The translations under genes and the position numbers were made by a program. A stretch of 64,000 nt of DNA from Cyanidioschyzon merolae. Lineage: Eukaryota. Below are positions 5,050-58,333 of the stretch, in pieces (position 1 is the stretch's first letter; each line of letters opens with the position of its first letter). Where the stretch lies: NCBI GenBank assembly GCA_000091205.1, contig AP006500.2; one strand, given 5' to 3'. Under the pieces are notes generated by a model. It was given only the letters and a program-made list of their open reading frames with translations, was not told where the DNA came from and did not search any database.

Positions 5050-5149
5050 GCTTCAGCTACGCTTTTTCAGCAGCGCCTAGGCACGGGTAGCGTACAACGT
5101 GGCGCCAACGACGTTGATGCGTGCGTGTTTTGCGCGCACGCACGCATCC

Positions 5150-16256: not shown

Positions 16257-18443
16257 GCGCAGATGCTATCAGCGTGTGACGCTCTGCACAGGATGGCAAT
16301 GCACCGGCAACCAACTAGCTCGATGTCGATCGAAACCCATACTAGGATGAAGTGGAGCAGGCCCTGGAACATGGGCGCATATACTACAGTTTGGTGCTTT
16401 TTTCCATGGTATTCACCACCAGCCTTTGTGGAATGCAGCTGCGACTGCTCCCTGTTCCTCTATCTGTCCTCTAGCTTGCCATGCGTCGATCTCTTCCTCC
16501 CCTTCAGCTCTGCATTCAGCAGACAAAGTATGTTGATGGCAGTGTTCACGTCTTGATCACGCCGCTTGCGGTTGTTGTTGACGCATTCCACGTGGAGGAG
16601 GAAGCTGCGATCTGCGCTTCGCTGACCTTTCTCGCCTTCGTTGTATGGAGCCTCGGTGCGCTTTCTGCAGCAGTGGCACTGGACTGTGGTCGGATGTTTC
16701 CGTATGTCGACGAGACCTCCTCTCCCGCAGGTCGCTCGGTGGCGCGTGAGCGCTTGGATCAACACTCGCTGCATGCCCTTGACAAGTACAGACGGCTTTT
16801 GTTGGTGTCAACCTCCGATTCCGCCCTTACTGCTGTATCGTATGATCAGGGGCTTGTTGTGCCGTACCCCAGTACCGATTGCTCTGTCCGCTGCATACGC
16901 AAACGCACGTTGTTCCATTCGATAGATGATTTCTGGAACACGATGTTGTCCATGATGAAAAAAGTACACGAAGCGAAACCCAGGCTGAAGAAAAAGTCGA
17001 GAAATTTCGATCCATCTACGCTCTCTTCTTGAAAAGCGATGTCGCACTGCCCACTGCAAGCGATCCCCGTGATGACAAAAGTCCAACACGGGGACCATTT
17101 TCCGTGCGACCAGAACAGATGAGATGCTCTATAAGCGTATCCTGTGAAGGCTAACATGCTTCAGCCGCGTCCTGTCTTGTCGATGGCTACAAATAGCGTA
17201 GGGTTTGTCGTTCGAGTGGAATCGATTGCTTGTCGTCATAGGTTCAGGGAACGAGCGACATGAGCCTGTCTCGATGTCGTCGAGTGCCAAGTCGCGTGCT
17301 AATCTTCGTATAATCCGGCGGTGCGAGTTGCGCTACCCACGAGTTCCCTTGAAAGAGAAGCATCGGAACCTTGAAGAATGTGTGATTCGAGCATCGACAC
17401 ATAAAGAAATGAGACGAACCGTGATTTCGACGTCTGAATTCGATCATGATATTGTTTATTCTACGAATCCTTATTCTAGGGCGTTTCCAATCATCTTGAT
17501 TCCAATGAAGTAACGAATTCCAGCGGCACCGCGTCGGAAGCGCCACCCGGAGCAGAAATGCAAGAATCCTGAATCTACGTATGAATTCTGAGAAACTTCT
17601 TGGCGCAAGTTTCATCTCGAAGATGTACATGCGAAACAATCTTCGGGAGAGAATCGACAGGAAAGAATAGAGCTTGCACTTCATCATTCTATTTCACGCT
17701 GACATCCATCCACTCAGTAAGATAATCGGGCTGTTCATCAGCATGATTTTGATTCAAGTGCACATGTTGTTGACGTTGTTCGTGATCGCGATACGTTCAT
17801 TTGAAGCGCATCGTGTGCTCGTTCAGATAGGGACACACTCATGGGGCTAGAAGCGCGAACGTAGCGAGTAATTCGGAATCACATGACGTCGTAGGAGTAG
17901 GAGGCAAACGCTGCCTGCAGGTCGATATGGCGTAGGAAAAAGTCGTCTGCGGAGCATCTTTATTTGGCTGTGCAAGGGACGCGTGCCTATTGGCCACACG
18001 TTCGATTCGTCCTCTAGGCAGTTCAAGGCGCCGTTATCGAGAGCGCAAGACAGCGTTCACGGACGCTTGTGCAGCAGTGGATACCGCGTCGTCTCTGGGC
18101 GACGAACGCACCAGACGAATATCTCGATACTACTATTATCCCTGTTACTGTTAAAGTTGTGGTCACTCTCCATTCAAAATCATTGCAATATCTGCAGCGC
18201 ATGGAGTGTCCGACGGTACCCATGCAAGGAAAGCGTCACTTGGGGCGATCGACTGACGATTCAGGGCTGTGGGATGAAATGAGATGCTCGCGGTATCTTG
18301 GGGTCGCTTGGAGGCGCTCAATGCTCGCCCATGTGCAAGATAAAGCACGTACGTGACACCGCCTTGCTTTGAGCGCAGGGGGCTGCCCCCGCTAGCGGCC
18401 CAAGAGCAGCACTGCTTGAAGTAATCAACCATGAGGATGAGCG

Positions 18444-26071: not shown

Positions 26072-27580
26072 GTGCGAAGTGCGTCGCCCGCACCGCAGCA
26101 TCCGCCATGCTGCATCCATGACACGCATGTGCGCTCGGATGCGTGCTGCACGGGACACGTGTCGCTCTTGACACACGTCTCTGGGATTCAGCACGGCAAA
26201 TATACTCTTCTGGGCTGGAATACGCTCAAGTCGAGGTATATGCGAACTGGACCGCAGATTAGCGCGGCAGCAGTCACGAAGTGGACCTGCTGGCAACGCC
26301 AGCGCCAGCTGGAGCGCATGGCGGTGTGGATTGTAGCGAGTCTTGCCGCACCTGGAGCGAAACAGGTACGTGAGGCTCGGTATGAGCACCGGCCGCGCTT
26401 CTCGACCGAAGCGGTGCCGCTTTGGAAACTCACCATGTTGTTGGTGCGCCTTTATCACAGCAGCTGGCACGCGGGATCGCGTGAAAGCACTTACTTGCGA
26501 GAGCTCTTCTATCGGCTCGTTCCTGTTTTCGATAGCCAGCAGGAATTGACGCAATACCTGGATCGTTTACTTGCCGCTGCACGAATCTCTCGTTTCTCAT
26601 TGGGTATCATTGCCGAGTCACGCGGATGGGTGTTTTTCGGTAGCGGGATCCAGCTGCAAAAACGGTCTATCGAAAACGAGCGACCTCGATATGTTCAATC
26701 AGAAGCCGCCAATGCAAGGCTGTGCACGCCCCATCGCGGTCTCATGCCGATTCCAGATGACATCGTGCTGGACCCTGGGGCGTATCAGCTGGTAGTGGAG
26801 CCCCGCCAAGATCTAGTTGTCGTCATCCTCATCGTGGAAAAGTTCGGCGTATTCCGCTGTCTCGTGGATGAAGGATTTGCCTCGATCCTGCCGGTACTCA
26901 CAATCCTTGTCACTGGCGGGGGCCAGCCGTCGCTGGCAACGCGTGCACTGGTGGCCCAGATAGCGCGATGCTTGGAAGCGCACCATGCTGCTTTTAGGAG
27001 CACGAACGCCCCGCATACGTATCCCCGGTTCGACATCTACGTCATCACAGACTACGATCCATACGGCCTCTGCATTGCTCGCCAGTATCGCCGATCTCTG
27101 GCTGCAGCGCTGCCGCAGTTCACTGCTGATTCGAAGTTCACCCGTCTGCCACGCTGGATAGGCCCACGCGCCTGCCACCTATTCCGAGCCCGATCAAGTC
27201 GTGCGAACTGCGAGTTACTCCGCGCCAAGTCCGAGGCAGACCAATCTCCACTCATGCGCGGTCCGATGCCATCCCAGCGGGCACTGGTACTCGCACGAAA
27301 CATCTTTGCCGAGGCAGTCCTTCAGGGCGATTCGCTCGTTGCCGAGGAGCTGCACCACATGATTGGCTCGCAGCTGTATACCGATCCATCGATGCTGAAA
27401 CTGGCCAGGAACCTGCCCTGGATTGACGGTTGCCCCGGTGCCGCTGGGGATGGTATCGGTACCCATGACTTGCATACCCTGGTGCTGCTCCTGGGACCAG
27501 GGGGTTTCGCGCGTGATTTTTTGCCGCGCTTGATCCTGGAAACGAGGCAGGAAGAGCTTAGAAAATCACTTGGGCTATGA
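26072..27580 (+). CDS. SPO11: Spo11 / topoisomerase VI subunit A homologue
   Basis: Catalytic Tyr region TYLRELFYR...FDSQQE (5Y-CAP) and LGIIAESRGWVF. Toprim motifs LVVVILIVEKFGVFRCL, ILVTGGGQPSLATRALV and DIYVITDYDPYGLCIA (DxD). Start codon uncertain (several upstream Met). Confidence 0.8.
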   Translation: MRSASPAPQHPPCCIHDTHVRSDACCTGHVSLLTHVSGIQHGKYTLLGWNTLKSRYMRTGPQISAAAVTKWTCWQRQRQLERMAVWIVASLAAPGAKQVREARYEHRPRFSTEAVPLWKLTMLLVRLYHSSWHAGSRESTYLRELFYRLVPVFDSQQELTQYLDRLLAAARISRFSLGIIAESRGWVFFGSGIQLQKRSIENERPRYVQSEAANARLCTPHRGLMPIPDDIVLDPGAYQLVVEPRQDLVVVILIVEKFGVFRCLVDEGFASILPVLTILVTGGGQPSLATRALVAQIARCLEAHHAAFRSTNAPHTYPRFDIYVITDYDPYGLCIARQYRRSLAAALPQFTADSKFTRLPRWIGPRACHLFRARSSRANCELLRAKSEADQSPLMRGPMPSQRALVLARNIFAEAVLQGDSLVAEELHHMIGSQLYTDPSMLKLARNLPWIDGCPGAAGDGIGTHDLHTLVLLLGPGGFARDFLPRLILETRQEELRKSLGL

Positions 27581-35040: not shown

Positions 35041-36228
35041 TCACTGTACATTGGAAACTGGCTGCTCGGCAGGGTGCTGCCCGTTGGTCTGCTCATCGGC
35101 AACAACCTCGAGGGTCGGGAATTCAATGAGGCACTCGGCAGCGCGAACGACATCGGCGATCCTGACATCCTCCATTTTCGGGATCGGGACCCGAGGCTGG
35201 TTCGCTCGGTCGGATTTCAGATATACCGAAAAGTGCTCAGTGTCTGCAACGAATCGTCGTATCTGGAGGCGCTCGAGGGCCTCGGCCATTGTGACATGCT
35301 CTGGGCAGCGGTCCAGTGCGAGGACACTATCGTTCGGCGCTTGCGCTGCAACCGAAACGAAGCACTCAATTCGCCATTCGATGCAATCCGCTGCTGAACG
35401 ATACATCGATGTATTCCGGCGGTGCTTGGAAAATACTTCAGGTAAAAGTTGAAGTCGGATGCCGCGCTTCGTTGCAGCACGTTGGACGGCTGCCAAGCGC
35501 CTCCGCCGTGCGTGGTCCTCCGCTGCGGTGGGCCCGCGTAACCGCGGCACCGAACCGCCGCCAGACAGTATTTGCTGGACGTATCGCTTATGACTCTGTT
35601 GACGTAGTTCAAGATCTTCCAAAAACGCATAGTCACGAAGAAGTTGCTTCAGGTCGTAGTCAGTGCGCGGAATAAAAGCGTATCGGGTTGTCTCGAGCCG
35701 GCCGGAACAACCAGCTTCCCTATGTCCACGATAGCAGTCCAGAGAGCACAACCGTCGCTGACATACCGGGCACTTGTAGACAGCCTCGTGCTGGTTTTCG
35801 CACTGAGAGCACCGCTTTCGGGCTTCGGTGCCTGCAGGGGTTAGGGCTTTCGCGTGGCTGTCGCTGGCGGTGTCGACGTCAGGTTGTGCATCGAGCTCCG
35901 TCGTGGTGGAGACGGAGCGTTGCCCAGGCCGCCACGAGACGTCTGCAACGTCGTCCGTCACAACACCGTCCCGACAAAAGGTATCTCGATCCATGCAACG
36001 ACGAGACAAGGTACTTGGGAGACGGTGCGGAGCGCATGCCGCTGCGAGTGCCAGGAACGCCATACCATAGATGTATACGTCTAGACAAAATGGTCTATCC
36101 TTGCGCACCGCGCTGTAGCGCTCTTCCGGCGGTGCGTCAACCACGCATGAACCACGAGCAGCGAGCATGTGTTTCCCGCGTGAACAAGCAAGTAGCTCTG
36201 TTGGAGCTGAAAATCCAAACGATTGCAA
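35041..36228 (-). CDS. zf-HIT protein, BCD1 (box C/D snoRNP assembly factor)-like
   Basis: HIT zinc finger CSQCENQHEAVYKCPVCQRRLCSLDCYRGHRE followed by BCD1-like segment YDLKQLLRDYAFLEDLEL. N-terminal ~120 aa may not be coding. Confidence 0.55.
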   Translation of the reverse strand: MQSFGFSAPTELLACSRGKHMLAARGSCVVDAPPEERYSAVRKDRPFCLDVYIYGMAFLALAAACAPHRLPSTLSRRCMDRDTFCRDGVVTDDVADVSWRPGQRSVSTTTELDAQPDVDTASDSHAKALTPAGTEARKRCSQCENQHEAVYKCPVCQRRLCSLDCYRGHREAGCSGRLETTRYAFIPRTDYDLKQLLRDYAFLEDLELRQQSHKRYVQQILSGGGSVPRLRGPTAAEDHARRRRLAAVQRAATKRGIRLQLLPEVFSKHRRNTSMYRSAADCIEWRIECFVSVAAQAPNDSVLALDRCPEHVTMAEALERLQIRRFVADTEHFSVYLKSDRANQPRVPIPKMEDVRIADVVRAAECLIEFPTLEVVADEQTNGQHPAEQPVSNVQ

Positions 36229-36320: not shown

Positions 36321-37848
36321 GGATGCGCATGGAACACTGAACTGCTGCTCGTTCTATGGGCGCTTTTCGGTTCCCCGGAGCTTGATTCGATGTGTGGTCT
36401 CGAATATTGGCGTGCGGACACAGGGGGTTACGGTTCTACACAGCCCAGTCTGGCATTCTCGTTCTCGTTTACAGAGACGCTGCTTCGACGCTTTTGCCGC
36501 TGGAATGCTTGACGTTCCCGGACTCGTCTTGATTCCGATAACGTCTGTGAACAAGCGCTCGCAAGTCAAAAGATATCTCTCGGCAATGTACGCGCACAAA
36601 CATCCATGCTTCCCCTTTTGCTCGCCTGAAGCATGCGCAAATCACGCATGCTTCCAATGAAGACCTGCCTCTGATGCACACAAACTCGACGTCGTCCACT
36701 GTAGCGTTCGCCACAAGCAGATGTCACGCGCGCTCTCACCGAACGCTGCCCAAACGAACGGCTCTGTCCAAAATCCATATCCTCGTCCCTTTCTGGTCAT
36801 CGATGGAACGGCTCGCGACACCAGCGTGATACCCCGCGCGGGATGCGCGCCCAGAGGCTCCCGTCTCTCATGTGTGCATCGAAAGGCGCCCTGGACTCGG
36901 AAGTCAGATATCCAAGCGATCGTCCCGAAGCACAGACCGCGTCACCGCTGTGCACGAAGCGAGCCTCGACAAACCGTAATTTCTCGACTTGATCTCCAGC
37001 GCGGCATCGCGTTGCGGTGCCCGCCCCATCGTGGCCAACACGAAACGACCAGCGTATCCGAGAGCAAGTATGGGTAATGGAACTTGAGGGTAGGCGCTTC
37101 ACCATGGACGCTTTCCCGAAAGCCATTACCCACTCCGAATTCCGGGATCCATGGTCAATCTGAACGTTTTGTCGTCTGAATCGTGCCCGACATCGCGTTC
37201 CGCACGTCCTCTGTCGAAGGCGCTGCGTGCGCTTGCGCGTGCACCTGCCAGCCTTCAGGGCTAACCGATTGCCGAGCTCGAGCCCGTGCTCATAGCGTGC
37301 GACACTGGGCTTGGAGGCAGAGGCGGGCATCACGTACGGCCTCCTGCGCTCGTCAACGGCACGTACCGAGCGAGGAGGAAAGCGTGCAGGTGCCAGAGGG
37401 CGACGCTCGGGGGAGCAGGAGCTGGAGCTGGCGCCGGAGCTGGCGTCCGAGTTGTGGGCGCACCGGCATACCCGGTTGCAGTCCGGTGGCGTCCCTTGCA
37501 GCGGCGCCACCGAGACCGTCTACGAAGCAGACGGGCATGAAATGCGGAGCGTAGATCGCAGCGATCGTCGGTGTATCCACTGCGTCAACAATCGCGTGAA
37601 GCTGCGGTATCGCGAAGCGAACTCGGGCATCAACACCTATTGAGTGCTGACAACGAAGGTGGATGCAAGTGAGCGTGCGGCACATGCACTGCCGTATACA
37701 AGAGACAGAAGCAGGAAGCAGGTGCAGCAAAAGCCTGCAGCGGCAGGTGCTGACGATTGTGACGAACTACCCAAACTTTGGAGCCTACGCTCGAGTTAGC
37801 GTACTCGACCAGCTCCATTTCATTTTGACCTGGAGGCAGAGGTATTCA
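36321..37848. repeat. Direct repeat copy A (1528 bp), close to identical to copy B (~10 single-base differences by eye)
   Basis: Base-by-base identity with 42113-43640 at constant offset 5792, with about 10 single-base differences by eye. Identical ORF-track peptides appear in both copies (e.g. 36797-37510 vs 42589-43302). Sharp boundaries: both copies begin GGATGCGCATGGAACACTG and end GGAGGCAGAGGTATTCA. Confidence 0.95.
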
Positions 37849-38347
37849 CGGGAGGCATGCGGTGATCGGTAGACAATCCCAGTTCCCGATCGAGACCGCA
37901 TCATGATTCCAACGCCCTGGAACAAGCACATTTGGAACCGCAAAGTGGTTCAGCTTCCACGTGGAGAAGCAGTACCCAGCTTTTCCGCTTTATACACGCT
38001 CAAGCGGTAACCGTCAGCACGCCTCGCATCCGTTCGTCGGTTTCAAATGCGACCGTTGCCCTGGACACTCGTCCACGCTGCACCCGAATATCGCCCAGAT
38101 TCCGAGTCGCCCGAACAAACTGAGCAACAAAGCCACCTGGTGCAGCATGGACTACAGTGCAGCGGACACCGCGGATGCATGAACGCGCGGCCTGATACCA
38201 AACAGCTTAGCTACCAACCATATTTATCGGATGAGCGCGTGCCTATCTTCGAACTAGCGCATACCTCTCTCTCTCAAACCAAAATTCCCCATCATGATCC
38301 CGTTCCTTTGAGAGCCGCCAAGGGCCGCCTCGTGCGCGCTACGCTAT

Positions 38348-41300
38348 TCAAGAGCTCGCGACTGCCGTTCGGACACGTCCCTCATCGGTGCCGGACCTTG
38401 CAGCAGAACCGGTCGTTGACGGGTGCATCATTTCGGGTACCGGTGGACACGAGCACACCAGATTCCGATCACCGTACACGTCATCGATGCGAGAGGTTCG
38501 CGGCCAGAACTTGCCGCGCGCGTAGAGCCAGCTTGCCGGGAAGGCGCCAATCTCGCGCGGATACGGCCGATCCCAGGTATCCGCACTGACCACCTCTGCC
38601 GTGTGTGGTGCATACTTGAGCGGATTGTGCTGCGGATCCCAGCGACCCTGCTCAATCTGGCGAATCTCTTCGCGAATCATCAGCATCGCATCGCAAAACC
38701 GATCGAGCTCATCGATACTCTCGCTCTCCGTCGGTTCAATCATAAGCGTTCCAGCCACCGGCCATGACATGGTAGGAGAATGGAATCCATAGTCCTGAAG
38801 GCGTTTCGCCACGTCCGATTCCGTAACACCTGCACTAAGCTTGAACGGACGTAGATCCAGGATAAACTCATGTGCGCATCGTCCGTGCTTCCCGCGATAC
38901 AGAATCGGATACGCCGGCGACAAGCGCGCCGCCATGTAATTCGCATTCAGGATCGCCTGTTCGCTGGCCTCGCGCAAGCCGTCGCTACCCATCATTTTCA
39001 CAAACATCCACACAATCGGCAGGATGGATGCAGAGCCGTACGGCGCCGCCGCAATCGGCCCAATCGCGGTATCGGGGTGTGCGCTCGCCACCGGGCGCAC
39101 CGGATGCGACGGCAGGAAAGGCGCCAGCGCCTCTGTCACGGCGATCGCGCCGACGCCGGGCCCGCCGCCGCCGTGCGGGATCGTCAGCGTCTTGTGCAGG
39201 TTCAGGTGACACGCATCGCCGCCGATCTCCGCGGGCGACGTGAGGCCCATCTGCGCGTTCAGGTTTGCCCCATCGATATACACCAGACCTCCGTTTGTGT
39301 GAATGATGTCGCAGATTTCCTTGATGCCCTCCTCGAACACTCCGTGCGTGGAGGGATACGTGATCATGGCTGCGGCGAGCTGATCTCGATGTTGCTCCGC
39401 GCGAGCACGCAGTTCGGCGATATCGATGTTGCCCTGGGCGTCGGTACCGACCGGGATGATACGCATACCTGCCATTTTGGCGCTCGCTGGGTTTGTTCCA
39501 TGCGCCGATGTCGGTACAATGCATACCTTGCGTTGGTGCTGGCCGCGGGCCTTGTGGTACGCCAAAAAGGTCATCAGGCCGGCGTATTCGCCCTGGGCGC
39601 CGCTGTTCGGCTGCAGAGACACGGCTGCGAATCCTGTGATATCCGCGAGATCACGTTCGAGATCTGCAAACAATCGTTGGTAGCCGCGCAATTGTTCGGG
39701 TGGTGTAAAGGGATGCGGCAGGGAGAACTCTGGCCACGATACAGGGATCATCTCGCTGGTGGCGTTCAGCTTCATCGTGCAGCTGCCCAGAGGAATCATG
39801 GAGTGCACCAGCGACAAATCCTTGGCTGCTAGTTGATGGATGTATCGGAGCATCTTGTGCTCCGTGCGATACTCGTGAAATACCGGGTGCGTCATGTATG
39901 CGGTTGTTCGTTCGAAGGCCTGGGCAAGGTTCGGCTCGAGGCCGCCAAAACCGCTCGGTGGCAGCGATGCAGCGATTTGCTCCAGCTCCTCGCCAGAGCA
40001 TGGACGTTGCGGACCGCGAAAAGCTGAGACAAGCTCCTGGAGGTCGTCGCGAGTATGCGTTTCGTCGAACGATACAGAAATTGAGCGGGGCCCCAGAGAT
40101 CGTACATTCAGTTTTGCCGCATCGCAGCGCGCTAGCACCGCTTGCGCCGCCTCTGTGGTCGGGTAATCGATGCGCACGGTATCAAAAATTGCAGCCTTTT
40201 CGCTGACACCCACGCCGACTGCAGCGGCGAAGGTGCGGGCGAAGCGTTGTACGCGATTGGCGATAGCACGGAGGCCATCCGGTCCATGATACAGCCCATA
40301 CATTGCGGAAATGTTCGCAAGCAACGCTTGAGCGGTGCAGACGTTGCTTGTTGCCTTATCGCGACGAATATGCTGTTCGCGGGTCTGCAGCGCCATGCGC
40401 AGTGCCGGTTTGCCCTGAGCGTCGCGACTAATGCCGATAATTCTCCCTGGCATGAGACGCTTGAGATCGTCACGGCAGGCGAAAAACGCAGCCGATGGAC
40501 CACCATACCCCATGGGAACACCGAAGCGCTGTGCACTGCCCACGGCGATATCAGCTCCCCATTCTCCAGGCGGTCGCAGCATCGTCAGAGCCAGGAGATC
40601 TGATGCAACAACGACGCGTGTGCCATGCGCGTGCGCATTCTCCACAAACGACGTATAGTCATGGATCGTGCCGTCCGTTGCGGGATACTGCACCAGCGCA
40701 CCACACAAGTCGGCTCCATCCCACTGCACCTGCTGCCAGTTGTCCACGACAAGCTCGATGTCCATGGGCTCTGCACGCACCTTCATGACTGCAATCGTTT
40801 GCGGATGCACATCCTTGTCGACGAAAAATCGAAGCTTCTTGCGCTTCGAGACAGCAGCACACATACTCATCGCTTCGGCTGCCGCAGTTCCCTCGTCAAG
40901 CAGTGAGGCATTCGCTATAGGCAGGCCCGTGAGGTCCCCCACCATTGTCTGGAAGTTCAGCAGGGATTCCAAGCGTCCCTGCGCAACTTCAGCTTGATAT
41001 GGAGTGTACTGCGTATACCAGGCAGGGTTTTCCAGGATGTTTCGCTGAATGACTGGAGGCATGATGGTACCATAGTACCCGCAGCCGATAAAGTTACGTC
41101 GCAGTTCGTTCTGTTTCGCGATCTGCCGCAGCTCAGCGAGCACCTCAGACTCGGCGCGCTTTGGCCCAACGCTCAGCTTCCGCGTCGTGCGAATCGACTT
41201 GGGAATCGTCTGATCCATCAGTTCTTCGATACTTTTCACACCAAGAACCTGAAGCATTTTTTCGTTCGCTTCCGGGTTCCCAGAGCCGGTATGTCGTTTG

Positions 41301-41554
41301 TAGAACAGGTCCAGCGGCGCAAACGCCGAACTCGATGCCCCTCGCCGGAACTCTGCCTGTAAACGCCAACTCAACGCCGACCTCAGTGAATGGTAAGCAC
41401 CCGCGACGCCTACACCACGTACAGGAGCTCCTACCACTGAATTACCGGTGTGGTAGCGAGAGCGTGCTGAATTAAGCCAGCGCTGCGTGTCCGCACCGAG
41501 CGCACGTCGACGAGTTACCGACCCGCTGACGCGAGTGAGCAAGAGGCGAAACAT
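38348..41554 (-). CDS. GLDC: Glycine dehydrogenase (decarboxylating), glycine-cleavage P-protein, mitochondrial precursor (1068 aa)
   Basis: Full-length single ORF with mitochondrial-type presequence MFRLLLTRVSGSVTRRRALG and conserved two-domain GcvP sequence throughout (e.g. DxFYKRHTG, TEAAQAVLARCDAA, PLP-region HLNLHKTLTIPHGGGGPG). Confidence 0.95.
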   Translation of the reverse strand: MFRLLLTRVSGSVTRRRALGADTQRWLNSARSRYHTGNSVVGAPVRGVGVAGAYHSLRSALSWRLQAEFRRGASSSAFAPLDLFYKRHTGSGNPEANEKMLQVLGVKSIEELMDQTIPKSIRTTRKLSVGPKRAESEVLAELRQIAKQNELRRNFIGCGYYGTIMPPVIQRNILENPAWYTQYTPYQAEVAQGRLESLLNFQTMVGDLTGLPIANASLLDEGTAAAEAMSMCAAVSKRKKLRFFVDKDVHPQTIAVMKVRAEPMDIELVVDNWQQVQWDGADLCGALVQYPATDGTIHDYTSFVENAHAHGTRVVVASDLLALTMLRPPGEWGADIAVGSAQRFGVPMGYGGPSAAFFACRDDLKRLMPGRIIGISRDAQGKPALRMALQTREQHIRRDKATSNVCTAQALLANISAMYGLYHGPDGLRAIANRVQRFARTFAAAVGVGVSEKAAIFDTVRIDYPTTEAAQAVLARCDAAKLNVRSLGPRSISVSFDETHTRDDLQELVSAFRGPQRPCSGEELEQIAASLPPSGFGGLEPNLAQAFERTTAYMTHPVFHEYRTEHKMLRYIHQLAAKDLSLVHSMIPLGSCTMKLNATSEMIPVSWPEFSLPHPFTPPEQLRGYQRLFADLERDLADITGFAAVSLQPNSGAQGEYAGLMTFLAYHKARGQHQRKVCIVPTSAHGTNPASAKMAGMRIIPVGTDAQGNIDIAELRARAEQHRDQLAAAMITYPSTHGVFEEGIKEICDIIHTNGGLVYIDGANLNAQMGLTSPAEIGGDACHLNLHKTLTIPHGGGGPGVGAIAVTEALAPFLPSHPVRPVASAHPDTAIGPIAAAPYGSASILPIVWMFVKMMGSDGLREASEQAILNANYMAARLSPAYPILYRGKHGRCAHEFILDLRPFKLSAGVTESDVAKRLQDYGFHSPTMSWPVAGTLMIEPTESESIDELDRFCDAMLMIREEIRQIEQGRWDPQHNPLKYAPHTAEVVSADTWDRPYPREIGAFPASWLYARGKFWPRTSRIDDVYGDRNLVCSCPPVPEMMHPSTTGSAARSGTDEGRVRTAVASS

Positions 41555-41790
41555 TCAGCAAGGCAGCACGAGACTCTATGTAAACTTCCTCGACTTGACT
41601 GTCACAGCACTATGGGACTCGGCTCAGCACCAACCGTGAACGACAGCGCAAACAAACAAGCGTTTACAGACGTTGACGCCTTGTGAACCAGACCTAAAGT
41701 CTAGCTCAGGCAGATGGTACCAGCGCGATGATAGCGTCGGCGGCACCCGCAGCAGCCAGCGATGCGTACTGCCTGGTGATGAATCGGATG

Positions 41791-41950
41791 GCAGCGACGG
41801 GAAGCGCGCACGCACACACACCTGCCGCAGCCGCACGATCGACACTCAGATCAGCGCCAGCGACAGGAAGCGCGCGCGCACACACACCTGCCACAGTGGC
41901 AGGATCGACACTCAGATCAGCGCCAGCGACAGGAAGCGCGCGCGCACGCC
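41791..41950. repeat. ~66-bp tandem repeat (about 2.4 copies) in the GcvP upstream region
   Basis: Unit gcgccagcgacaggaagcgcgcgcgcacacacacctgcc(g/a)cag...gatcgacactcagatca repeated head-to-tail. Visible as repeated peptide SASDRKRARTHTC in ORF 41673-42026. Confidence 0.8.
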
Positions 41951-42112
41951 CATCGCAGGCGAGGCGCTGCCTGGAGTCATCACGCCGCGGCGTCAGAGCG
42001 GCAGCCGCTGGGCGCGCCACGTATGACGTGATCTCGCAGGCACACAGCCACGGAAGCAGTGCGCGCGCGTGCTGATGCCGTCCGGCAGGCGTCGACTGCT
42101 TTAAGGATCGTA

Positions 42113-43640
42113 GGATGCGCATGGAACACTGAACTGCTGCTCGTTCTATGGGCGCTTTTCGGTTCCCCGGAGCTTGATTCGATGCGTGGTCTCGAATATT
42201 GGCGTGCGGACACAGGGGGTTACGGTTCTACACAGCCCAGTCTGGCATTCTCGTTCTCGTTTACAGAGACGCTGCTTCGACGCTTTTGCCGCTGGAATGC
42301 TTGACGTTCCCGGACTCGTCTTGATTCCGATAACGTCTGTGAACAAGCGCTCGCAAGTCAAAAGATATCCCTCGGCAATGTACGCGCACAAACATCCATG
42401 CTTCCCCTTTTGCTCGCCTGAAGCATGCGCAAATCACGCATGCTCCCAATGAAGACCTGCCTCTGATGCACACAAACTCGACGTCGTCCACTGTAGCGTT
42501 CGCCACAGGCAGATGTCACGCGCGCTCTCACCGAACGCTGCCCAAACGAACGGCTCTGTCCAAAATCCATATCCTCGTCCCTTTCTGGTCATCGATGGAG
42601 CGGCTCGCGACACCAGCGTGATACCCCGCGCGGGATGCGCGCCCAGAGGCTCCCGTCTCTCATGTGTGCATCGAAAGGCGCCCTGGACTCGGAAGTCAGA
42701 TATCCAAGCGATCGTCCCGAAGCACAGACCGCGTCACCGTTGTGCACGAAGCGAGCCTCGACAAACCGTAATTTCTCGACTTGATCTCCAGCGCGGCATC
42801 GCGTTGCGGTGCCCGCCCCATCGTGGCCAACACGAAACGACCAGCGTATCCGAGAGCAAGTATGGGTGATGGAACTTGAGGGTAGGCGCTTCACCATGGA
42901 CGCTTTCCCGAAAGCCATTACCCACTCCGAATTCCGGGATCCATGGTCAATCTGAACGTTTTGTCGTCGGAATCGTGCCCGACATCGCGTTCCGCACGTC
43001 CTCTGTCGAAGGCGCTGCGTGCGCTTGCGCGTGCACCTGCCAGCCTTCAGGGCTAACCGATTGCCGAGCTCGAGCCCGTGCTCATAGCGTGCGACACTGG
43101 GCTTGGAGGCAGAGGCGGGCATCACGTACGGCCTCCTGCGCTCGTCAACGGCACGTACCGAGCGAGGAGGAAAGCATGCAGGTGCCAGAGGGCGACGCTC
43201 GGGGGAGCAGGAGCTGGAGCTGGCGCCGGAGCTGGCGTCCGAGTTGTGGGCGCACCGGCATACCCGGTTGCAGTCCGGTGGCGTCCCTTGCAGCGGCGCC
43301 ACCGAGACCGTCTACGAAGCAGACGGGCATGAAATGCGGAGCGTAGATCGCAGCGATCGTCGGTGTATCCACTGCGTCAACAATCGCGTGAAGCTGCGGT
43401 ATCGCGAAGCGAACTCGGGCATCAACACCTATTGAGTGCTGACAACGAAGGTGGATGCAAGTGAGCGTGCGGCACATGCACTGCCGTATACAAGAGACAG
43501 AAGCAGGAAGCAGATGCAGCAAAAGCCTGCAGCGGCAGGTGCTGACGATTGTGACGAACTACCCAAACTTTGGAGCCTACGCTCGAGTTAGCGTACTCGA
43601 CCAGCTCCATTTCATTCTGACCTGGAGGCAGAGGTATTCA
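42113..43640. repeat. Direct repeat copy B (1528 bp), same orientation as copy A
   Basis: See copy A. Starts 559 bp upstream of the GcvP ATG; copy A starts 93 bp upstream of the BCD1-like ATG. Confidence 0.95.
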
Positions 43641-44624: not shown

Positions 44625-47132
44625 CTAGTCCGAAGCGCTGTCCCGGAAAAGGTACCGCGCGAATAGTTCTAAACCGCCGTCGCTCCGACCGGCCTCACCA
44701 CGAACCTCCCGGTCGAAATACGGCACAACGATGAGAGGACTAACACCGCTTCGACGCGTTTGCGAGGGTAGTGCCTGCTGTAAACGTTCAGTCTGCTGAC
44801 CGTGTTCCCGAACAAGCCGATGCACAAAGCGCTCCAAGTCTCGTAGCGTTGGTGGTACAACCTGATTGATCACGAGACGATGCGACGCAATACGCTGTCT
44901 TGCAAGTGCTTGTGCCAAGCGCTCTGTTTCCACAACGTTCAGATAGGTAGGCCGCGTAACTAGAACGACTTCGCTTCGTTCCGGATCGTGAAGAAGATCC
45001 CTCAGCTCCATAAGCTGTTCCCGAAATCGACTCAAGCGTTGGGCCGGGGTCAGCTCAGGTTCAGTACGATCGCTGCGTCCACCGAGACCCGAAAAGAACT
45101 GCGTGATACCATCTAGCTTCGATTTGAGGCGGAGGATCCTCCCGAGCAGACCATCCAGAAAGTCCGGAAACGCAAGCAGGCGCAGTGTGTGCCCAGTCGG
45201 CGCAGTATCGATCACAATATGGTCATACTCGGATGATATCAGGTTCACGACGCGAGAGAGCGCCACGAGCTCATCGATGCCTGGAGGCAGCGCGTCAAAC
45301 AGGTTCCCCAGATCACCAATGTCCAGATCCAGACCCAAAATCTTCGCGGAACGGAGCGATTCTAGCGTTTCCCGAAATTCGATCAGCGCTCGTTCCGCAT
45401 CGACTTCCAGGATGGAAAGATTTTCAGCGATCAGTGTCACATCATTCAGGTAGGAGCCGGACGGTGCTTTCACGTCGAATAAGTCGCCCAGAGAATGGGC
45501 CGGATCCGTTGAGACCACGATAGTGCGTTGCCCGGTATCGGCAAGGTGCACGCCGATGGCTCCCGCTGTCGTGGTCTTTCCACAGCCGCCTTTAGCAGCG
45601 GTGAGGACCACTTTGCGCAGGCGCGGCTTCTCATCAGACCACAATGGCGACAGACAGGCAGCGAAGGCGCGAGCACCATACACTGTGCGAATCTCCGTAT
45701 CGAAAATAGGGACCTGAACGATATCGTATCCATGCGTAGCACCGAGTCGTTGGTGCAAGCGTTCAAGAAACTCCTGCTGCGCGCTTTGCATCGAGTGTAT
45801 GTACGCGCCCTTCGCGGATGGTTGCAGCACCATGTTCACGATGACAGCAGAGACCGATAAGCTCCTCTTGTGAGTTAATTCATCGATCAATCGAAGCGAC
45901 TCTCGGACGGCTAGCTCTGTCGCAATGGTCACCACAACGATTTCCGTGGATTTCTCGTCACGGAGCAGGGATCCGAGTTGCTGCATTCGCTGCTGAAATG
46001 TACCAATTTTGGAGGCGGCCTCCTCCCATTGCTTTCTATTCACCGAACCAGAGACTGTATTCAAGATCACACCCAGCTTACCCCTGAGTTGCAAGAGCTT
46101 GCCCAGAAAGGAATCCAGAAAATCGGGAAACGATAGCAATCGGAGCGTGTGCCCGCTGGGTGCCGTATCGATAACCACCCGATCATAGCGTTCCAGTAGG
46201 TCCAAAATAAGCGAGAGCGCAACAAACTCATCAGCCCCGGGAGGTACGGTATCCAAAAGCTCTTGCACATCTGCCAACCCCAACTTGTTTAAATCGATCA
46301 GACGCTGCGTCGAAATGAGGGCCTTGAACTCCTCCGCAGCAGCAGTAATATCGATTTCCAGTGCGTCCAGGTTTGGTGCTACGCGTTGCACTTGGCCACG
46401 CACGCTTGAGCGCCCCTGTGAAGCTGGCTCGATCAGCACCAGTTCATCGAGCGACGCCGCCTCCGTGCCAAGGTCAACACCGAGCGCATCACCGAGCGAG
46501 TGTGCCGGGTCCGTAGACACAACCAGCGTGCGTAGACCGGCTGATGCGAGTCGATGCGCTACGGCAGCGGAAGTGGTCGTTTTCCCGGTCCCGCCTTTGC
46601 CAGTGAAGAGACATATGCGCGTGGTGGTGTCTGTTCGCAACAGGTGTGCGAGCGGAGACTCGGACACGTCGAGCGCGTTTGCAAGCGAGCTGCACGAAAC
46701 TTGTTCACGTCCTGCATGGGCGACTCGCTCGCGCCCCGATCTCGACTCGTTATTCTGTTTCCTGGTGAGCGTTTTTCGGGTGAGAGCCGCACCCGGGAAC
46801 CCACGTGTCCGTAGCCAAGTCCGCGCCTCACCGCTCGGCAGCGCTTCTGTTACAACGAGTGCATTCGTCCGGAGCGCCCAACCCCGTGAAAGCGTCCAGT
46901 GTCCCGCGTCGACTCGAGCAACGCACAGCACAGCCTGTTGCGTACCCGCCAGCCGAGTTGAGCGTAATAGAACCTGGTCGTTCAGGGCTGCAACCGGAAT
47001 CGAGAGGCCAACAAAGCCCGGCAATCGCTGGTGTTCCATAGTCGCGCCCACGTTGACAGGAACACGAGAGAGAAGCGGATCACTGGCGAATGACCGCTGA
47101 GTCCAGACCGAATGCGGTTGAAGAGCTAGCAC
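44625..47132 (-). CDS. ArsA/GET3-family ATPase with two tandem ATPase domains and ~170-aa N-terminal extension
   Basis: Two P-loops (LFTGKGGTGKTTTSAA and LTAAKGGCGKTTTAGA), each followed by VVSTDPAHSLGD and DTAPTGHTLRLL motifs, as in bacterial ArsA and plastid ArsA/GET3B-like proteins. Confidence 0.85.
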   Translation of the reverse strand: MLALQPHSVWTQRSFASDPLLSRVPVNVGATMEHQRLPGFVGLSIPVAALNDQVLLRSTRLAGTQQAVLCVARVDAGHWTLSRGWALRTNALVVTEALPSGEARTWLRTRGFPGAALTRKTLTRKQNNESRSGRERVAHAGREQVSCSSLANALDVSESPLAHLLRTDTTTRICLFTGKGGTGKTTTSAAVAHRLASAGLRTLVVSTDPAHSLGDALGVDLGTEAASLDELVLIEPASQGRSSVRGQVQRVAPNLDALEIDITAAAEEFKALISTQRLIDLNKLGLADVQELLDTVPPGADEFVALSLILDLLERYDRVVIDTAPSGHTLRLLSFPDFLDSFLGKLLQLRGKLGVILNTVSGSVNRKQWEEAASKIGTFQQRMQQLGSLLRDEKSTEIVVVTIATELAVRESLRLIDELTHKRSLSVSAVIVNMVLQPSAKGAYIHSMQSAQQEFLERLHQRLGATHGYDIVQVPIFDTEIRTVYGARAFAACLSPLWSDEKPRLRKVVLTAAKGGCGKTTTAGAIGVHLADTGQRTIVVSTDPAHSLGDLFDVKAPSGSYLNDVTLIAENLSILEVDAERALIEFRETLESLRSAKILGLDLDIGDLGNLFDALPPGIDELVALSRVVNLISSEYDHIVIDTAPTGHTLRLLAFPDFLDGLLGRILRLKSKLDGITQFFSGLGGRSDRTEPELTPAQRLSRFREQLMELRDLLHDPERSEVVLVTRPTYLNVVETERLAQALARQRIASHRLVINQVVPPTLRDLERFVHRLVREHGQQTERLQQALPSQTRRSGVSPLIVVPYFDREVRGEAGRSDGGLELFARYLFRDSASD

Positions 47133-50516: not shown

Positions 50517-52154
50517 ACGCCTGCACCTTGTACCCGCCCCAAGTCGAGGAGTCGCAGTCGGGCACTACGCCCGTGTCAGACGAAATTGGAACTTTGGGCG
50601 GCTCGTCCCGATTGTGGCGACGATTTTTCCGAACTTGTGTTCGATGTACTGCCTTCATCATTCGGGGTGCAGCGATGCAGACGTGCCGATGTACACGACG
50701 TTTTCGGATATTGGGTCGTTGTTTCGGAGTGGCTCCGTTGACAATTTGCTGGTGGAATTCGTTGCGTTACTGGAATCAGAATGATGTGCTACGCCCTCGA
50801 GCAAGTATTCGTGAAATCACCGAGATCATCTTCGCAATTCATGTGGAGAAGCCTCCACTCTTCTCCTTTTTACGTGTATCATGTTTAAATCATGAATTCT
50901 CCAATTTTTCGATCTTTTTGGATCAAGGCAAATCGCGGACGCAGCAATTCGCGCTGCCAGATCGGCGGGGCCAAAAATCGACGCCGGCCCGTGACGACTT
51001 GTTCATGAGCGCATACCAGAAGTTCACGAAGAATCAAGTCAAATAATCGAATTGGTTCGAAAGATAAGTCCTTCCCTGATTGTGGTCATCGACGAAACAG
51101 CATTCCACAGCAGCGCGATACCTCTGAGGGCATATTCTCCCAGAGGCTCCCGTCTCTGCCGCATGCATCGAAAAGGGTCCGGTGCACGGGCTGCAGTCAT
51201 CGCAGCGATACGCTTCCAGATGAGAGCGCACCACCGCTCTGCGCAGAGAGAGCGTCGAAGAATCGACATTGCTCGAATTGCGCTCCAGCGTGGATATTCT
51301 TTCCGGTGCCTGTTTCATCATGTACATGACAGCGTCCCACAAAACCCGTATGGAATGGAACAGCGTGCGCGTGAGCGTGCATCGGACAGCGTACTCGCCA
51401 CGGGGATTCTCCAGAGAATACCCGTGATCATCAGGAACAGCAGCATGCGGGGAAACGGTGGAGGGCATCGAGGTGAGCTTTTCTGCACCCGCCAAGGGCA
51501 AGCACTGAGCGATGAAGCACGTCTCGCGCGCCACAGCGCGGCGCTCGGAAGCGACATGGTTGGTATATTGGAAAACGTAACCACAGCCATACGTTTCAAG
51601 TTTGAAGTGCGCACCGAGACTCTACACACCGTAAGCGAAATGGCAATCGAAGCGTCAATTGCTGATTCTGCCTGTACCGGAAATACATCCACTACAACCG
51701 GAAGCAGCGAAATCTGGACTCAAACGCTGTCATCAACGTAATGCTTCTGCTGCTGACTACGGTGCTGGAGGGAAAGGAGAGACCGGCACATTCAAAGTCG
51801 GAGATGAGAGACAGGAAATGGAAGCAGTCGTAGAAAAACGCGCAAAAACTTTTGCTGATGGCAAAGGGCAGAAACGAGAGCTTGAAGGCGTATGCGCGTC
51901 TTCATAAGCATGTCCAATTTTATGGTAACATGGGTGTATCGGAGGCTCGAGTCGGCAGTGGACGCATGGCTGTCCCAGAAATCACTTTTGTCCATATTGT
52001 ATCTATTATATCGAATTTTATCCAAAATGGATCGCACACGGCGAGCGGCGTCGCCATCGTCCAGCTCCGGCTGCAACACTTGGATGTTCTTACTACCCCT
52101 CTAGGCTTCAAAGGTTTGCTGCAAGGGCTGCTTTCTGGGAGACGCTGACGCATC

Positions 52155-54507: not shown

Positions 54508-56008
54508 ACGATCAGGGGTGTCGATTCGCCCTACCTTTCGTGAGAGCAGCGTTCCGTATAAGCCCTGTGCAGAGACAGCGCTCCGGGTCGTTGCGGAGCC
54601 ACCGCGCCACGTTCGAAGCGGGGTGTCTGCTCGCTGCTCAGAAGGCGCAAGTCACTCGACTCCACGGGTACGCACTCCAGGTCTGCCCAGTGGTCGGACA
54701 ATTTGAGGTGCTCGACCCGAGCACCCCTATGAACTGCACGAAAGACGTGCAACTCCCTGCTATACTTGTTCTGAGCACCTTTTCTGTTGCAGAGCTTCGC
54801 ACGACTGGCGTCGGGGCTTTCGGAGCCAGCCGCAACGCTACCGGTGCCCGAGCCAGCGGCAATAGCGACGACGCTCTAGCGCAGGTTGCGCTCGTGCGCT
54901 TCCGAACAACTCCTGCATTTGCATTGGGTCACTGCTGAGGCGGTTCGGACGAGTGATATATCTGGGGACGGAAAGCTGCAACCATTCTTGTGACAGCCAG
55001 CACAGCGATAGTTTCGTCATGGGTATTGCGAGAGAGAGAACACGGGCGATTGACCTGGTGTGATGAAGAGTCTGCCGGTTTAGAGCCGTTTCTGTCTCCT
55101 GGTACCAGCGGACTGATCAACTCGAGAACACGCCGCATAGCAAGCAACGATAATTTCTGGTAGATCCCTCCATAGCGAGCGCATCGCTACCCGAACCTGC
55201 ACATTGGCTCGATGAGCACGCTGCACCGCGAGCGCTTGTATTGCCCAGCGGGTCGCACAAAGCACGCGAACATGTGCGGACAGCAACATGGAGACGCGCA
55301 CCTGCATGATTCTTGCGTGCCGCTGGTTACTCTGGCGACCTTGGATAATAGCAGCGAACCTCGGATGCGTATCCAGAGGGCATTTTTGGAACGCAAGGCT
55401 CGCAATGCGCATCACGCTTGTACGAGCATCTGCATTTATTTTGGGCAAGGCGCTCATCCTTCGGAATGCATCCTCAGCGTGCATCAGTGGGATCGCATGA
55501 GTACTTTTCACGGGTCTCTGGATGGCGTTTGAAAAGCCTGCTCCGTGGAACACGTTGTGGTCGACCCGCCGCTCTTGCGACGCCTACTGCGATGCGGCTC
55601 CAGCTGCAAGAGTGCAGCGCCGTGTGCATGTAGCGCATACCTGCAGGCTTTTCCGCGCACGAAGCCCACAGCGCTCGGCTCGCAGAGGCATGCTCACAAA
55701 TGCGATACAGCTAGCAGATATATCACATCTTCCGCTGAACGGAAACGCGTCAGCTAATGCCACGTGCCGAGTCAGGAAAACGCAGCGTGCGCTCAGACCC
55801 GTCTGTCTTTCAGGGCAGACTCGACACCTGGTAGAACCCACGACCTGATCGTTTGCTCTATGGCGACCTAGTCCTGGTCGCGGATAGACCCTGGAAGTAT
55901 GTTGCGGAATGATGGATGCTCTAACAGGTGCACCGAACAACCACCTGATGGGGGATGGCTCATTCGGGCGAAAAACCCATCGATCATAGAAGAAATTGCA
56001 GGCTAGAT

Positions 56009-56468
56009 GCCATTCTTTGCGGATGTTCGCAGCAGACTCGGCACACGATGCAACGCGCGAAACGACCAGAACATCGGAGAGGCAGCATGGGTCATGAGAC
56101 CTGAACATAAACCACAGAATAATGCCATTCTTTGCGGATGTTCGCAGCAGACTCGGCACACGATGCAACGCGCGAAACGACCAGAACATCGGAGAGGCAG
56201 CATGGGTCATGAGACCTGAACATAAACCACAGAATAATGCCATTCTTTGCGGATGTTCGCAGCAGACTCGGCACACGATGCAACGCGCGAAACGACCAGA
56301 ACATCGGAGAGGCAGCATGGGTCATGAGACCTGAACATAAACCACAGAATAATGCCATTCTTTGCGGATGTTCGCAGCAGACTCGGCACACGATGCAACG
56401 CGCGAAACGACCAGAACATCGGAGAGGCAGCATGGGTCATGAGACCTGAACATAAACTACAGAATAAT
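56009..56468. repeat. Tandem array of 4 x 115-bp units (minisatellite), copies 1-3 identical, copy 4 with a single-base variant
   Basis: Unit gccattctttgcggatgttcgcagcagactcggcacacgatgcaacgcgcgaaacgaccagaacatcggagaggcagcatgggtcatgagacctgaacataaaccacagaataat recurs at 56009, 56124, 56239 and 56354. Produces the identical repeated peptides in ORF-track entries 56003-56203, 56092-56433 and 56207-56617. Confidence 0.95.
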
Positions 56469-56714
56469 GGATGCTTTCCAGAACACCAAAATGCATCGCC
56501 TAATCTGGTATCCTTCGTCCTTGTAAATGTTCCGTTGAACAATTGAGCACACGTCATCCGTTCGTTGCCCGCGGAGGCGCCTCTCTCAAGGGCGGTGTGC
56601 GATCGCGAGGGCGTCACGCACGGCGCGGCTGCATGCGTGCGTTGCGTGCGCGCGCTCAGCCGAGTCTCTTGGGCAAGCGCTTGCCTAGCTGCCTGTTTGC
56701 GTCAAAGTAGGCTG

Positions 56715-57621: not shown

Positions 57622-58333
57622 AAACGAATTTGGGCAAGACTTTTCAAAAATTGATGACGAACTCTATGCACTGATGAATGGAATATTCCGTTATCCCTGT
57701 CCGAGAGTGAAGATGAAACTCATTGCGGATACCTGATGGACTACCTGAGCACGGAGTTTGTATCTATACAGTATTTCATGACGTCCTATGATGAAGCGGA
57801 CCCAGACAAGTCCACTGAGATGCTTGGCTCTGCATGGAAGTCGCTGGTGAAAGCTCGATACGTGCCGCGATTCTCAAGTGCCGGCCGAAGATCAAGTCCA
57901 TGGTTTCATGCGCGCGTACGTGAATTCTCGGGTGTGTATGGAAGAATGCGGGTATGCATCGGCTACCGAATGCTCTGTGGCGCTTGCATTCGCGGCACTG
58001 TATCGTACACATCGTGATGTTGGTTAACAGCAACAACAACTCGCCCGAGAAATGACACTCCCTGAGACCCGGCTACCTGCGACTGCACATGGCGATGCGG
58101 TAACCAGTCAGCAGTGGAAATGGCAACCTCGAACATAAGAAAATTCGCAGTTTTCTTCCTATACTCCTGTCGAAGAACAAGCAGTGCGTGACTTCACAAG
58201 CTCGCAGCGCGCTGTGGTCAAGTCGCATACAGAACCCGACGCCGTGACACGCGGGCGGGCGATGGTCTCTGGTCGACCTCCAAAACATACCATCGCTCGA
58301 TAAAATTTTTTGGTTACTGCAAGAGACTCAGTG

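Follow-up and report, generated by a model that had tools for sequence, protein, structure and literature searches.

The literature presents the model alga Cyanidioschyzon merolae as a free-living eukaryote with hardly any transposons (0.7%; eight class II elements). Members of the IS630/Tc1/mariner superfamily are units of about 1.3–2.4 kb with a single transposase gene, and concerted evolution by intrachromosomal conversion is known from duplicated genes, LTR pairs and palindrome arms in other eukaryotes; we know of no documentation of GC-biased conversion in C. merolae. For strain 10D, eight transposase-related class II elements have been described whose best matches are transposases of bacteria (E = 0.071 to 6e-7), together with a novel interspersed repetitive element of 253 copies (average 3.2 kb, with a truncated ORF weakly similar to the WSSV protein WSV486); no other abundant repeat has been reported from the genome (Nozaki et al. 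2007, PMC1955436).

Within a stretch of 64,000 nucleotides of chromosome 18 of C. merolae 10D (the window), a pair of repeats, A and B, brackets the glycine dehydrogenase gene GcvP (Table 1). We find that the pair belongs to a relic family that is unannotated but of a known kind of transposon; it is a case of ordinary genome biology and not a novel regulatory device. The initial annotation had described two near-identical, sharp-edged direct repeats around GcvP with about ten single-base differences, and this description holds: alignment of A with B gives 11 substitutions (10 of them transitions) and 0 indels over exactly 1528 bp (99.28%), with a constant displacement of 5792 bp, a match beyond chance. 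Homology begins abruptly at GGATGCGCATGG on the left and ends at GAGGTATTCA on the right, with unrelated flanks directly beyond, and GcvP (Pfam GDC-P, E = 3e-187) is the sole gene in between. One distance required correction, as copy A had been placed 93 bp upstream of the start of the BCD1-like gene; the codon concerned (36228) is TTG, and the first in-frame ATG (36168) lies 152 bp from the start of the copy. The distance from copy B to the GcvP ATG is 558 bp.

Table 1 Coordinates of features in the window, numbered from its first nucleotide
Feature	Position	Strand	Description
Copy A	36321..37848	+	1528-bp relic, IS630/Tc1-mariner-type; transposase pseudogene reads on the + strand
Copy B	42113..43640	+	99.28% identity to A, same orientation, 5792 bp off
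GcvP	38348..41554	-	glycine dehydrogenase P-protein, 1068 aa; identical to C. merolae 10D XP_005538536.1
BCD1/zf-HIT gene	35041..36168	-	counted from its first ATG
Tandem ArsA/GET3-type ATPase gene	44625..47039	-	end of copy B lies 984 bp downstream of its stop
66-bp tandem repeat, 2.4 units	41792..41947		in the unique spacer from GcvP ATG to copy B, outside the repeat
Copy C	50566..51938	+	old member, ~57% identity to A; fills the divergent Thg1/RPL2 spacer
Copy D	16301..17706	-	old member, inverted, between convergent genes; identity ~54% with A, 60% with C
152-bp segment	37042..37193 in A; 42834-42985 in B	+	absent from C and D; splits the second-D motif

Repeat, GcvP and repeat recur with the same junctions in many assemblies made independently from hot-spring metagenomes and read archives. 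Eight independent metagenome contigs (L004, L005, L017, L025–L029) cross both copies, and ~20 further contigs end 50–530 bp inside the repeat, as contigs from short-read assembly graphs should at a genuine repeat. That one copy was wrongly doubled during assembly is next to impossible, given that independent assemblies of over 15 samples reproduce all four repeat/unique junctions, that the copies differ at 11 sites, and that the 10D sequence is finished telomere-to-telomere (PMC1955436); the concern over mis-assembly raised by the initial annotation is thereby answered. The pair and its presence in wild populations were observed directly: both copies are in every sufficiently long contig, with no empty site among wild strains, and a scan of metagenome DNA with a left-end 28-mer, together with look-ups of ORF products, returned the young unit in no context other than A and B.

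The repeat is part of a dispersed family with at least four copies in the window, namely A, B and the full-length C and D (54–60% identical), and the genome, previously called otherwise non-redundant, is less so than stated as far as this window is concerned. Homology of C and D to the unit spans unit positions of about 9–1517, so that the edges of A and B fall where homology within the family gives out; this homology covers 1.37–1.53 kb and does not run into the flanks. A/B identity appears to overshoot the ends inferred from copy C, by ~1 nt on the left and 9 nt on the right. Copy C measures 1369 bp between its TA flanks (50566-7 and 51937-8), and A and B measure 1528 bp including the 152-bp segment, which is probably a nested secondary insertion, as suggested by its ~70% similarity to the unit of a 115-bp tandem array at 56007-56612. 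The family was not found at the syntenic loci of Cyanidiococcus and Cyanidium. The RPL2-Thg1 spacer is 1680 bp here (copy C contributing 1373 bp of it) versus 350 bp in Cyanidiococcus.

The termini of the copies differ in preservation. Candidate TA dinucleotides with imperfect terminal inverted repeats of 24–26 bp mark the ends of C (50566-50591 and 51913-51938), and a candidate inverted repeat is present at the ends of D; taken over the homologous ends of C and D, the imperfect arms measure 24–33 bp and are individually not significant (shuffle p of 0.11 and 0.17). TA on both sides is clear for C only. As noted earlier from the sequence, A and B hold no terminal inverted repeat (p = 0.3–0.66), target-site duplication (no TA duplication around either copy) or intact conserved ORF, but the accompanying idea of a non-coding module fails, as the unit contains a decayed transposase pseudogene.

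This remnant is legible in a majority consensus of the copies, which shows the motifs VVIDET/GYAPRGSRL/SVIAAI and FIMDNTAFHK/AYSP. With one frameshift corrected, the consensus matches Pfam DDE_3 (E = 6.4e-9, 36.2 bits against a gathering cut-off of 28.6 bits, profile positions 3-100) and the NCBIfam IS630 transposase (E = 1e-6), where the consensus combines three decayed copies and one frameshift junction picked by the analyst. The reading frame is on the + strand of the unit and is broken in 4/4 copies, all of them pseudogenes; none of the four natural copies passes the DDE_3 cut-off, the natural ORF of copy C alone reaches E = 0.006, and the protein signal of A is no better than that of C or D. 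Single copies nevertheless retain recognizable pieces: VVIDETA (51082-51102) and AYSP (51386-51409) in C, FIMDNIVFQK (16930-16959) in D, and in A the first-D remnant LVIDGTA (36793-36813) and second-D remnant IVANT (37028-37042). On these profile scores, we regard the unit as a decayed, autonomous-size IS630/Tc1-mariner transposon. Of the earlier suggestions, a non-autonomous element inserted twice came nearest: the element part stands, and the non-autonomous part gives way to the DDE_3 and IS630 scores of the consensus.

Searches for living relatives and for other classes returned little. A word-indexed protein search with the consensus for an intact autonomous relative matched only copy C's own ORF from a wild strain, protein searches with the consensus and with a 237-aa antisense ORF returned only the element's own ORFs, and both a PDB sequence search and PHROGs were empty. 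The 237-aa ORF, which metagenome annotators have called a gene, has no homologue but itself and no Pfam match and is considered spurious; comparison of the repeat copies showed no codon periodicity, with similarity about equal in all frames. A weak match to a Cas12f/TnpB domain (E = 0.004 among 36 queries) was not significant after multiple testing. Helitrons are marked by 5'-TC...CTRR-3' ends, a 3' hairpin and insertion between A and T, and the ends of the unit are GG...TTCA (+) or TG...ATCC (-), unlike that pattern. Non-LTR retroposons and SINEs are marked by a poly-A or simple-repeat 3' tail, 5' truncation, and similarity to a LINE tail or pol III RNA; the copies share no tail, the repeat contains no tRNA, matches no Rfam family either at the gathering threshold or with E ≤ 1, and shows no similarity to the neighboring non-LTR RT fragment at 5672-6667.

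Set beside described systems, the family resembles IS630/Tc1/mariner elements (ITm; Pfam DDE_3, NCBIfam NF033545) in size range (here ~1.37–1.53 kb), in the collinear order of its consensus motifs (first-D VIDET, GxAPRG, SVIAAI, second-D IMDNxxxHK and YSP), and in the TA flanks and candidate imperfect terminal inverted repeats of copy C; it differs in that all copies here are pseudogenes and that A and B lack recognizable inverted repeats or TA duplications. The eight class II elements of 10D come from the same genome, and their likeness to bacterial transposases fits an IS630-like family, a comparison made by description only. Against eight elements genome-wide, this 64 kb alone holds four relics, and most of these copies probably lay below the detection level of the 2007 survey. 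Likewise compared by description, the 253-copy WSV486-like element is also dispersed, intergenic and unclassified but is 3.2 kb rather than 1.4–1.5 kb long, and the ORF remnant here is IS630-like. That four relics of a single IS630/Tc1-mariner-like family lie in 64 kb suggests an under-annotated load of old transposons, which matters for repeat masking and for the reading of intergenic DNA in C. merolae as a model alga.

How A and B came to be so alike admits several explanations. On balance, we favor the reading that they are dead IS630/Tc1-mariner (DDE_3) copies kept alike by intrachromosomal gene conversion; homogenization by conversion is the most likely interpretation of the alignments because decay has gone as far in A and B as in C and D, and still the pair shows 99.3% identity. 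On this reading, the family's remnants in this 64 kb, four or more, would each have inserted once the lineage had parted from Cyanidiococcus; A and B, whose ends are no longer inverted repeats, would be immobile and would need no function, and the two direct copies, 4.3 kb apart, would exchange sequence by gene conversion (concerted evolution). Conversion would also explain why identity ends at the limits of family homology. The wild strains bear on this at the right end of the unit, where phased sites lie ≤68 bp from unique flank: at sites 1460/1497/1505, A copies carry AAC, AGT, GAC or GAT and B copies AAC or GAC, B-type haplotypes thus occurring on A copies. Strain-specific alleles are found in both copies of each wild haplotype, and 0 sites separate all A from all B copies, where only end-proximal sites are safely phased and interior A/B identity in metagenome contigs may reflect assembly collapse (metaSPAdes merges bubbles and walks simple loops). 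Conversion would not be frequent, as the 11 differences are spread evenly in Sanger-finished 10D. The initial annotation had offered a very recent event or ongoing gene conversion, and the shared phased polymorphisms of wild strains speak for the latter, with recent duplication as the main rival. According to that rival, which we regard as possible though rather doubtful, a single copying event placed one relic in the other spacer not long before the split of the sampled strains (through trans-mobilization by a still-active relative or repair-mediated duplication), with little or no conversion, and the 11 differences are plain post-duplication divergence. It draws support from the star-like similarity of A-B divergence in 10D (0.72%) to divergence between 10D and wild strains (0.56–0.85%), from a young subfamily of only two copies found, from A and B flanks without residual homology, from the local reinsertion common among DNA transposons, and from the chance that many shared interior alleles in wild contigs are products of assembly collapse. 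Against it stand the polymorphism of site 1460 (not a CpG) in both paralogs, the presence of all four 1460/1505 combinations within 45 bp, and the fixation of both copies in all strains sampled. Furthermore, classical transposition is unlikely with a dead transposase and with A/B ends that have no inverted repeats or TA duplications, and repair duplication would require a coincidence, as both ends fall within ~10 bp of the old element's ends. No significant residual homology was detected between the flanks of A and B or between these and the flanks of C and D; such homology would have proved two old insertions.

If conversion has acted, it may have been GC-biased, for which there is a hint: AT-to-GC versus reverse changes number 124/70 in the A lineage, 63/75 in C and 74/102 in D (Fisher p = 1e-5), in a comparison of three taxa that cannot be rooted, and the local spacers are GC-rich as well (0.56–0.63), partly matching the GC excess of A/B. 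The locus resembles known systems of concerted evolution in having direct copies a few kilobases apart that are far more alike than family age predicts, with polymorphisms shared between paralogs at the phased sites and a hint of AT-to-GC bias, and differs in that conversion is deduced here from short-read population contigs. In a lineage whose sexual cycle was recognized only recently, the A/B pair, carried by all wild strains sampled, constitutes a natural reporter whose shared polymorphisms could serve to quantify gene conversion, as well as any bias of it toward GC.

Two functional readings of the locus fare less well. It is very unlikely that, as had been proposed, the unit represents a promoter or regulatory module that was duplicated and is kept similar by selection, driving or insulating BCD1 and GcvP. 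The short distance from copy A to the BCD1 ATG means that the BCD1 promoter probably overlaps the relic, and repetitive elements of C. merolae have been reported to be transcribed (Nozaki 2007, PMC1955436). However, the sequence is a transposase pseudogene; its copies occupy tandem (A, B), divergent (C) and convergent (D) spacers, with no bias toward gene 5' flanks, an outcome that the initial annotation had itself named as refuting; conservation is uniform and without a constrained block (best three-way identity 20/30, with ~0.3 such windows expected by chance); the distances to the downstream ATG are unequal (152 versus 558 bp); and these genes are expressed in Cyanidiococcus and Cyanidium, where the element is lacking. 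We consider it extremely improbable that repeat-GcvP-repeat functions as a cassette for amplification or excision, or that GcvP was imported within a unit resembling a composite transposon. As in bacterial composite transposons (IS-cargo-IS), where two functional IS copies mobilize the intervening gene, two copies, here of IS630 type, bracket a metabolic gene, but these elements are dead and in direct orientation, without an intact transposase or, in A and B, inverted repeats, and what they enclose is a eukaryotic gene that is ancestral and syntenic: ArsA-GcvP synteny is kept in element-free Cyanidiococcus and Cyanidium, so that GcvP was not brought in from elsewhere, and the order ArsA-GcvP-BCD1 is conserved without elements in contigs L002 and L003. 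Loss of GcvP, a single-copy photorespiratory gene (PMC4867895), should moreover be selected against. What recommends the cassette is the length and identity of the direct repeats (1.5 kb, 99.3%) in an organism with efficient homologous recombination, together with contig L011, a circular permutation of the repeat plus the unique segment; this contig is exactly what a collapsed repeat in an assembly graph yields and contains no novel junction.

Nevertheless, work with C. merolae routinely relies on homologous recombination for direct-repeat pop-out (PMC8504449), so that the pair is a plausible substrate for unequal crossover or excision that could delete or amplify GcvP. Accordingly, when GcvP, BCD1 or ArsA loci are engineered by homologous recombination, the 1.5-kb near-identical direct repeats flanking GcvP should be noted. 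There is a slim chance that wild hot-spring C. merolae carry reversible GcvP copy-number variants through recombination between the relics, with the same exchange keeping the pair homogeneous. The forms predicted in that case, with R the repeat and U the unique segment, would be tandem R-U-R-U-R arrays or R+U circles; the topology of L011 fits an R+U circle and is explained equally by collapse of the assembly graph.

The two direct repeats that bracket the glycine dehydrogenase gene GcvP, as described in the initial annotation, were confirmed as exactly 1528-bp copies (A and B) at a constant offset of 5792 bp, with 99.28% identity, zero indels and 11 substitutions (unit positions 73, 258, 333, 396, 488, 628, 756, 857, 1064, 1402 and 1505), of which 10 are transitions. 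Their edges are sharp, and identity is at background level directly beyond GGATGCGCATGG... and ...GAGGTATTCA. GcvP, already read as single, is the sole gene separating A from B, and its protein matches C. merolae 10D XP_005538536.1 in every residue. The distance from A to the ATG of the BCD1-like gene, first put at 93 bp, is in fact 152 bp, since position 36228 holds a TTG codon and the gene's first ATG lies at 36168. Mis-assembly of the pair, which had been flagged for checking, is excluded: the same four junctions are reproduced in independent natural-population contigs (L004, L005, L017, L025–L029), each spanning repeat-GcvP-repeat. About 20 other contigs (L001, L006–L008, L018–L024, L030–L034) end within the repeat, several of them exactly 127 bp into it, the pattern that a genuine repeat leaves in an assembly graph built with k=127. 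The 10D genome sequence itself is finished from telomere to telomere (PMC1955436), and no empty site (a strain without A or B) was found among the natural-population assemblies. The unique spacer immediately upstream of the GcvP start codon holds a 66-bp tandem repeat, a possible promoter-region minisatellite.

Coordinates of the repeat copies and of other features in the window
Feature	Position	Strand	Remarks
Copy A, 1528 bp	36321-37848		co-linear with B
Copy B, 1528 bp	42113-43640		co-linear with A
Copy C	~50566-51938	+	57% identical to A
Copy D	~17706-16301	-	54% identical to A, 60% to C
GcvP	38348-41554	-	Pfam GDC-P, E=3e-187
237-aa ORF	36797-37510 and 42589-43302	-	antisense to transposase remnant
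152-bp insert in copy A	37042-37193		splits second-D motif
66-bp tandem repeat	41792-41947		2.4 units, 93% matches
115-bp tandem array	56007-56469, running on to 56612		four near-identical units, 99% matches
Reverse-transcriptase ORF, 331 aa	5672-6667	+	spacer 5050-7835; Pfam RVT_1, E=7e-20
Spo11/topoisomerase VI-A-domain ORF	26072-27580	+	TOP6A-Spo11 Toprim, E=2e-11; TP6A_N, E=5e-6

The repeat is not unique in the region, which corrects the initial interpretation: an nhmmer search of the window with unit A recovered two further near-full-length, old copies, C and D. Because their homology covers unit positions ~9–1517, the edges of A and B are those of a family rather than of an arbitrary segment. 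A and B both lie in spacers between tandem minus-strand genes, with the 3′ end of one gene on one side and the 5′ end of the next on the other; the divergent spacer between Thg1 and RPL2 is taken up by C, and an actin-related gene and an unknown ORF face each other with their 3′ ends across D. Cyanidiococcus (L002) and Cyanidium caldarium (L003) carry no family member at their syntenic loci, where the spacers are short (RPL2-Thg1, 350 bp in Cyanidiococcus versus 1680 bp in the window, of which C supplies 1373 bp; ArsA-GcvP, 279 bp in Cyanidium); the copies were therefore inserted within the Cyanidioschyzon lineage.

In their present state the copies appear non-coding, in agreement with the initial annotation: neither codon periodicity nor Rfam or tRNA matches were found in them, and conservation across A, C and D is uniform. 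Their longest ORF (237 aa) has no homologue beyond its own copies and, despite its annotation as 'hypothetical protein' in JGI metagenomes (cluster P0138, 15 members), is probably a spurious gene call. What had been missed is a transposase remnant in the family consensus. When every stop-free segment was scanned against Pfam in six frames, copy C gave a weak DDE_3 match, and the majority consensus of A, C and D reads, on the plus strand, ...SLFVVIDETARDSSVIPLTGYAPRGSRL...GARTSVIAAI... in one frame and ...KFLDLL...ACFIMDNTAFHKSSIEW...AYS... in the next, thus carrying the first-D, GxAPxG, second-D (DNxxxH) and YSP motifs of IS630/Tc1-mariner transposases in the correct order. With the two frames joined over one frameshift, this consensus matches Pfam DDE_3 (E=6.4e-9; 36.2 bits, gathering cut-off 28.6; profile positions 3–100 of 146) and the NCBIfam 'IS630 family transposase' (E=1e-6); in copy D both motif blocks naturally share one frame, 77 residues apart with one stop between. 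Catalytic residues are lost in the individual copies (A, IVANT; C, IMYMT; D, AIDKT). Copy C is bounded by TA and candidate imperfect 24–26-bp inverted repeats, and D has candidate inverted arms at homologous positions, neither significant alone; at the ends of A and B, inverted repeats and a TA duplication are absent, as originally observed. Judged by motif order, profile scores and the broken state of its copies, the family is one of dead IS630/Tc1-mariner-like transposons of autonomous size. The earlier alternative of an element inserted twice was right in seeing an element present twice, although this element does have coding ancestry. The few C. merolae 'class II elements' of Nozaki 2007, eight by count and most similar to bacterial transposases (PMC1955436), match this description; four relics within 64 kb imply a total above eight. 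The outcome is an unannotated relic family, one pair of which probably evolves in concert, both of already known kinds.

Since A is preserved no better than C or D, A and B do not represent a young active lineage. We lean towards concerted evolution, in which gene conversion between two old insertions close to each other would keep them alike. Across all searches the young unit was found only in the A and B contexts, A/B identity stops where family homology stops, there is no site at which the A copies as a whole differ from the B copies, and the private alleles of each wild haplotype are present in both copies, although interior A/B identity in metagenome contigs may reflect assembly collapse. 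At unit positions 1460 (not a CpG), 1497 and 1505, near enough to the unique flank for phasing by assembler k-mers, A copies carry AAC, AGT, GAC and GAT and B copies AAC and GAC, so that four gametes occur within 45 bp and B-type haplotypes occur on A copies. The conversion raised in the initial annotation is likely on these grounds, with the caveat that the 11 differences between the 10D copies are evenly spaced. Its main rival, one recent copying event, we regard as less likely; in its favour, the A-B divergence of 0.72% equals that between 10D and wild strains (0.56–0.85%), and the A/B flanks retain no residual homology. AT-to-GC versus reverse changes number 124/70 in the A lineage, 63/75 in C and 74/102 in D (p=1e-5; a three-copy, unrootable comparison), and GC content is 58.6–58.9% in A and B, 51.7% in C and 50.4% in D. 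This excess would fit GC-biased gene conversion, yet it is confounded by the spacers local to A and B, which are also GC-rich. Unit position 201 (36521 / 42313) has three alleles across strains: both 10D copies have G, wild haplotypes have either C or T, and within every haplotype the two copies agree.

Nothing points to a regulatory role, and the duplicated promoter module initially preferred gives way to dispersed transposon relics; the BCD1 promoter may overlap the left end of A. As 1.5-kb direct repeats of 99.3% identity, A and B are a plausible substrate by which the 4264-bp GcvP segment could be deleted or amplified, and homologous recombination in C. merolae removes markers flanked by direct repeats (PMC8504449). 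Deletions should be counter-selected, because the photorespiratory gene GcvP is present in a single copy (PMC4867895). In one contig, L011 (JGI Ga0209012_1007496, 5949 bp), repeat and unique segment are circularly permuted: the contig runs from the GcvP 3′ part through one repeat to the GcvP 5′ part, and its ends overlap by 157 bp. Its topology fits an excised circle or a tandem duplication but proves nothing, because the cycle expected from a collapsed repeat gives the same path without a new junction.

The 152-bp insert carried by both A and B is related to the 115-bp array, which sits in a 3.8-kb stretch (54508–58333) without a convincing gene. The ~70% similarity between this insert and the 115-bp unit with its following 143 bp suggests a second small repeat family. 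GCCAACAC just before the insert (37034–37041) and CCCGACAT at its end (37186–37193) could be the decayed remains of an 8-bp target-site duplication left by the nested insertion. The reverse-transcriptase ORF, which has a CPSF160/DDB1-like gene on one side and a WD40 gene on the other, is unrelated to the transposon family; it presumably belongs to the 26 non-LTR retrotransposon copies that have been reported from C. merolae. The Spo11-type ORF may be of interest given the newly described sexual cycle of Cyanidiophyceae.
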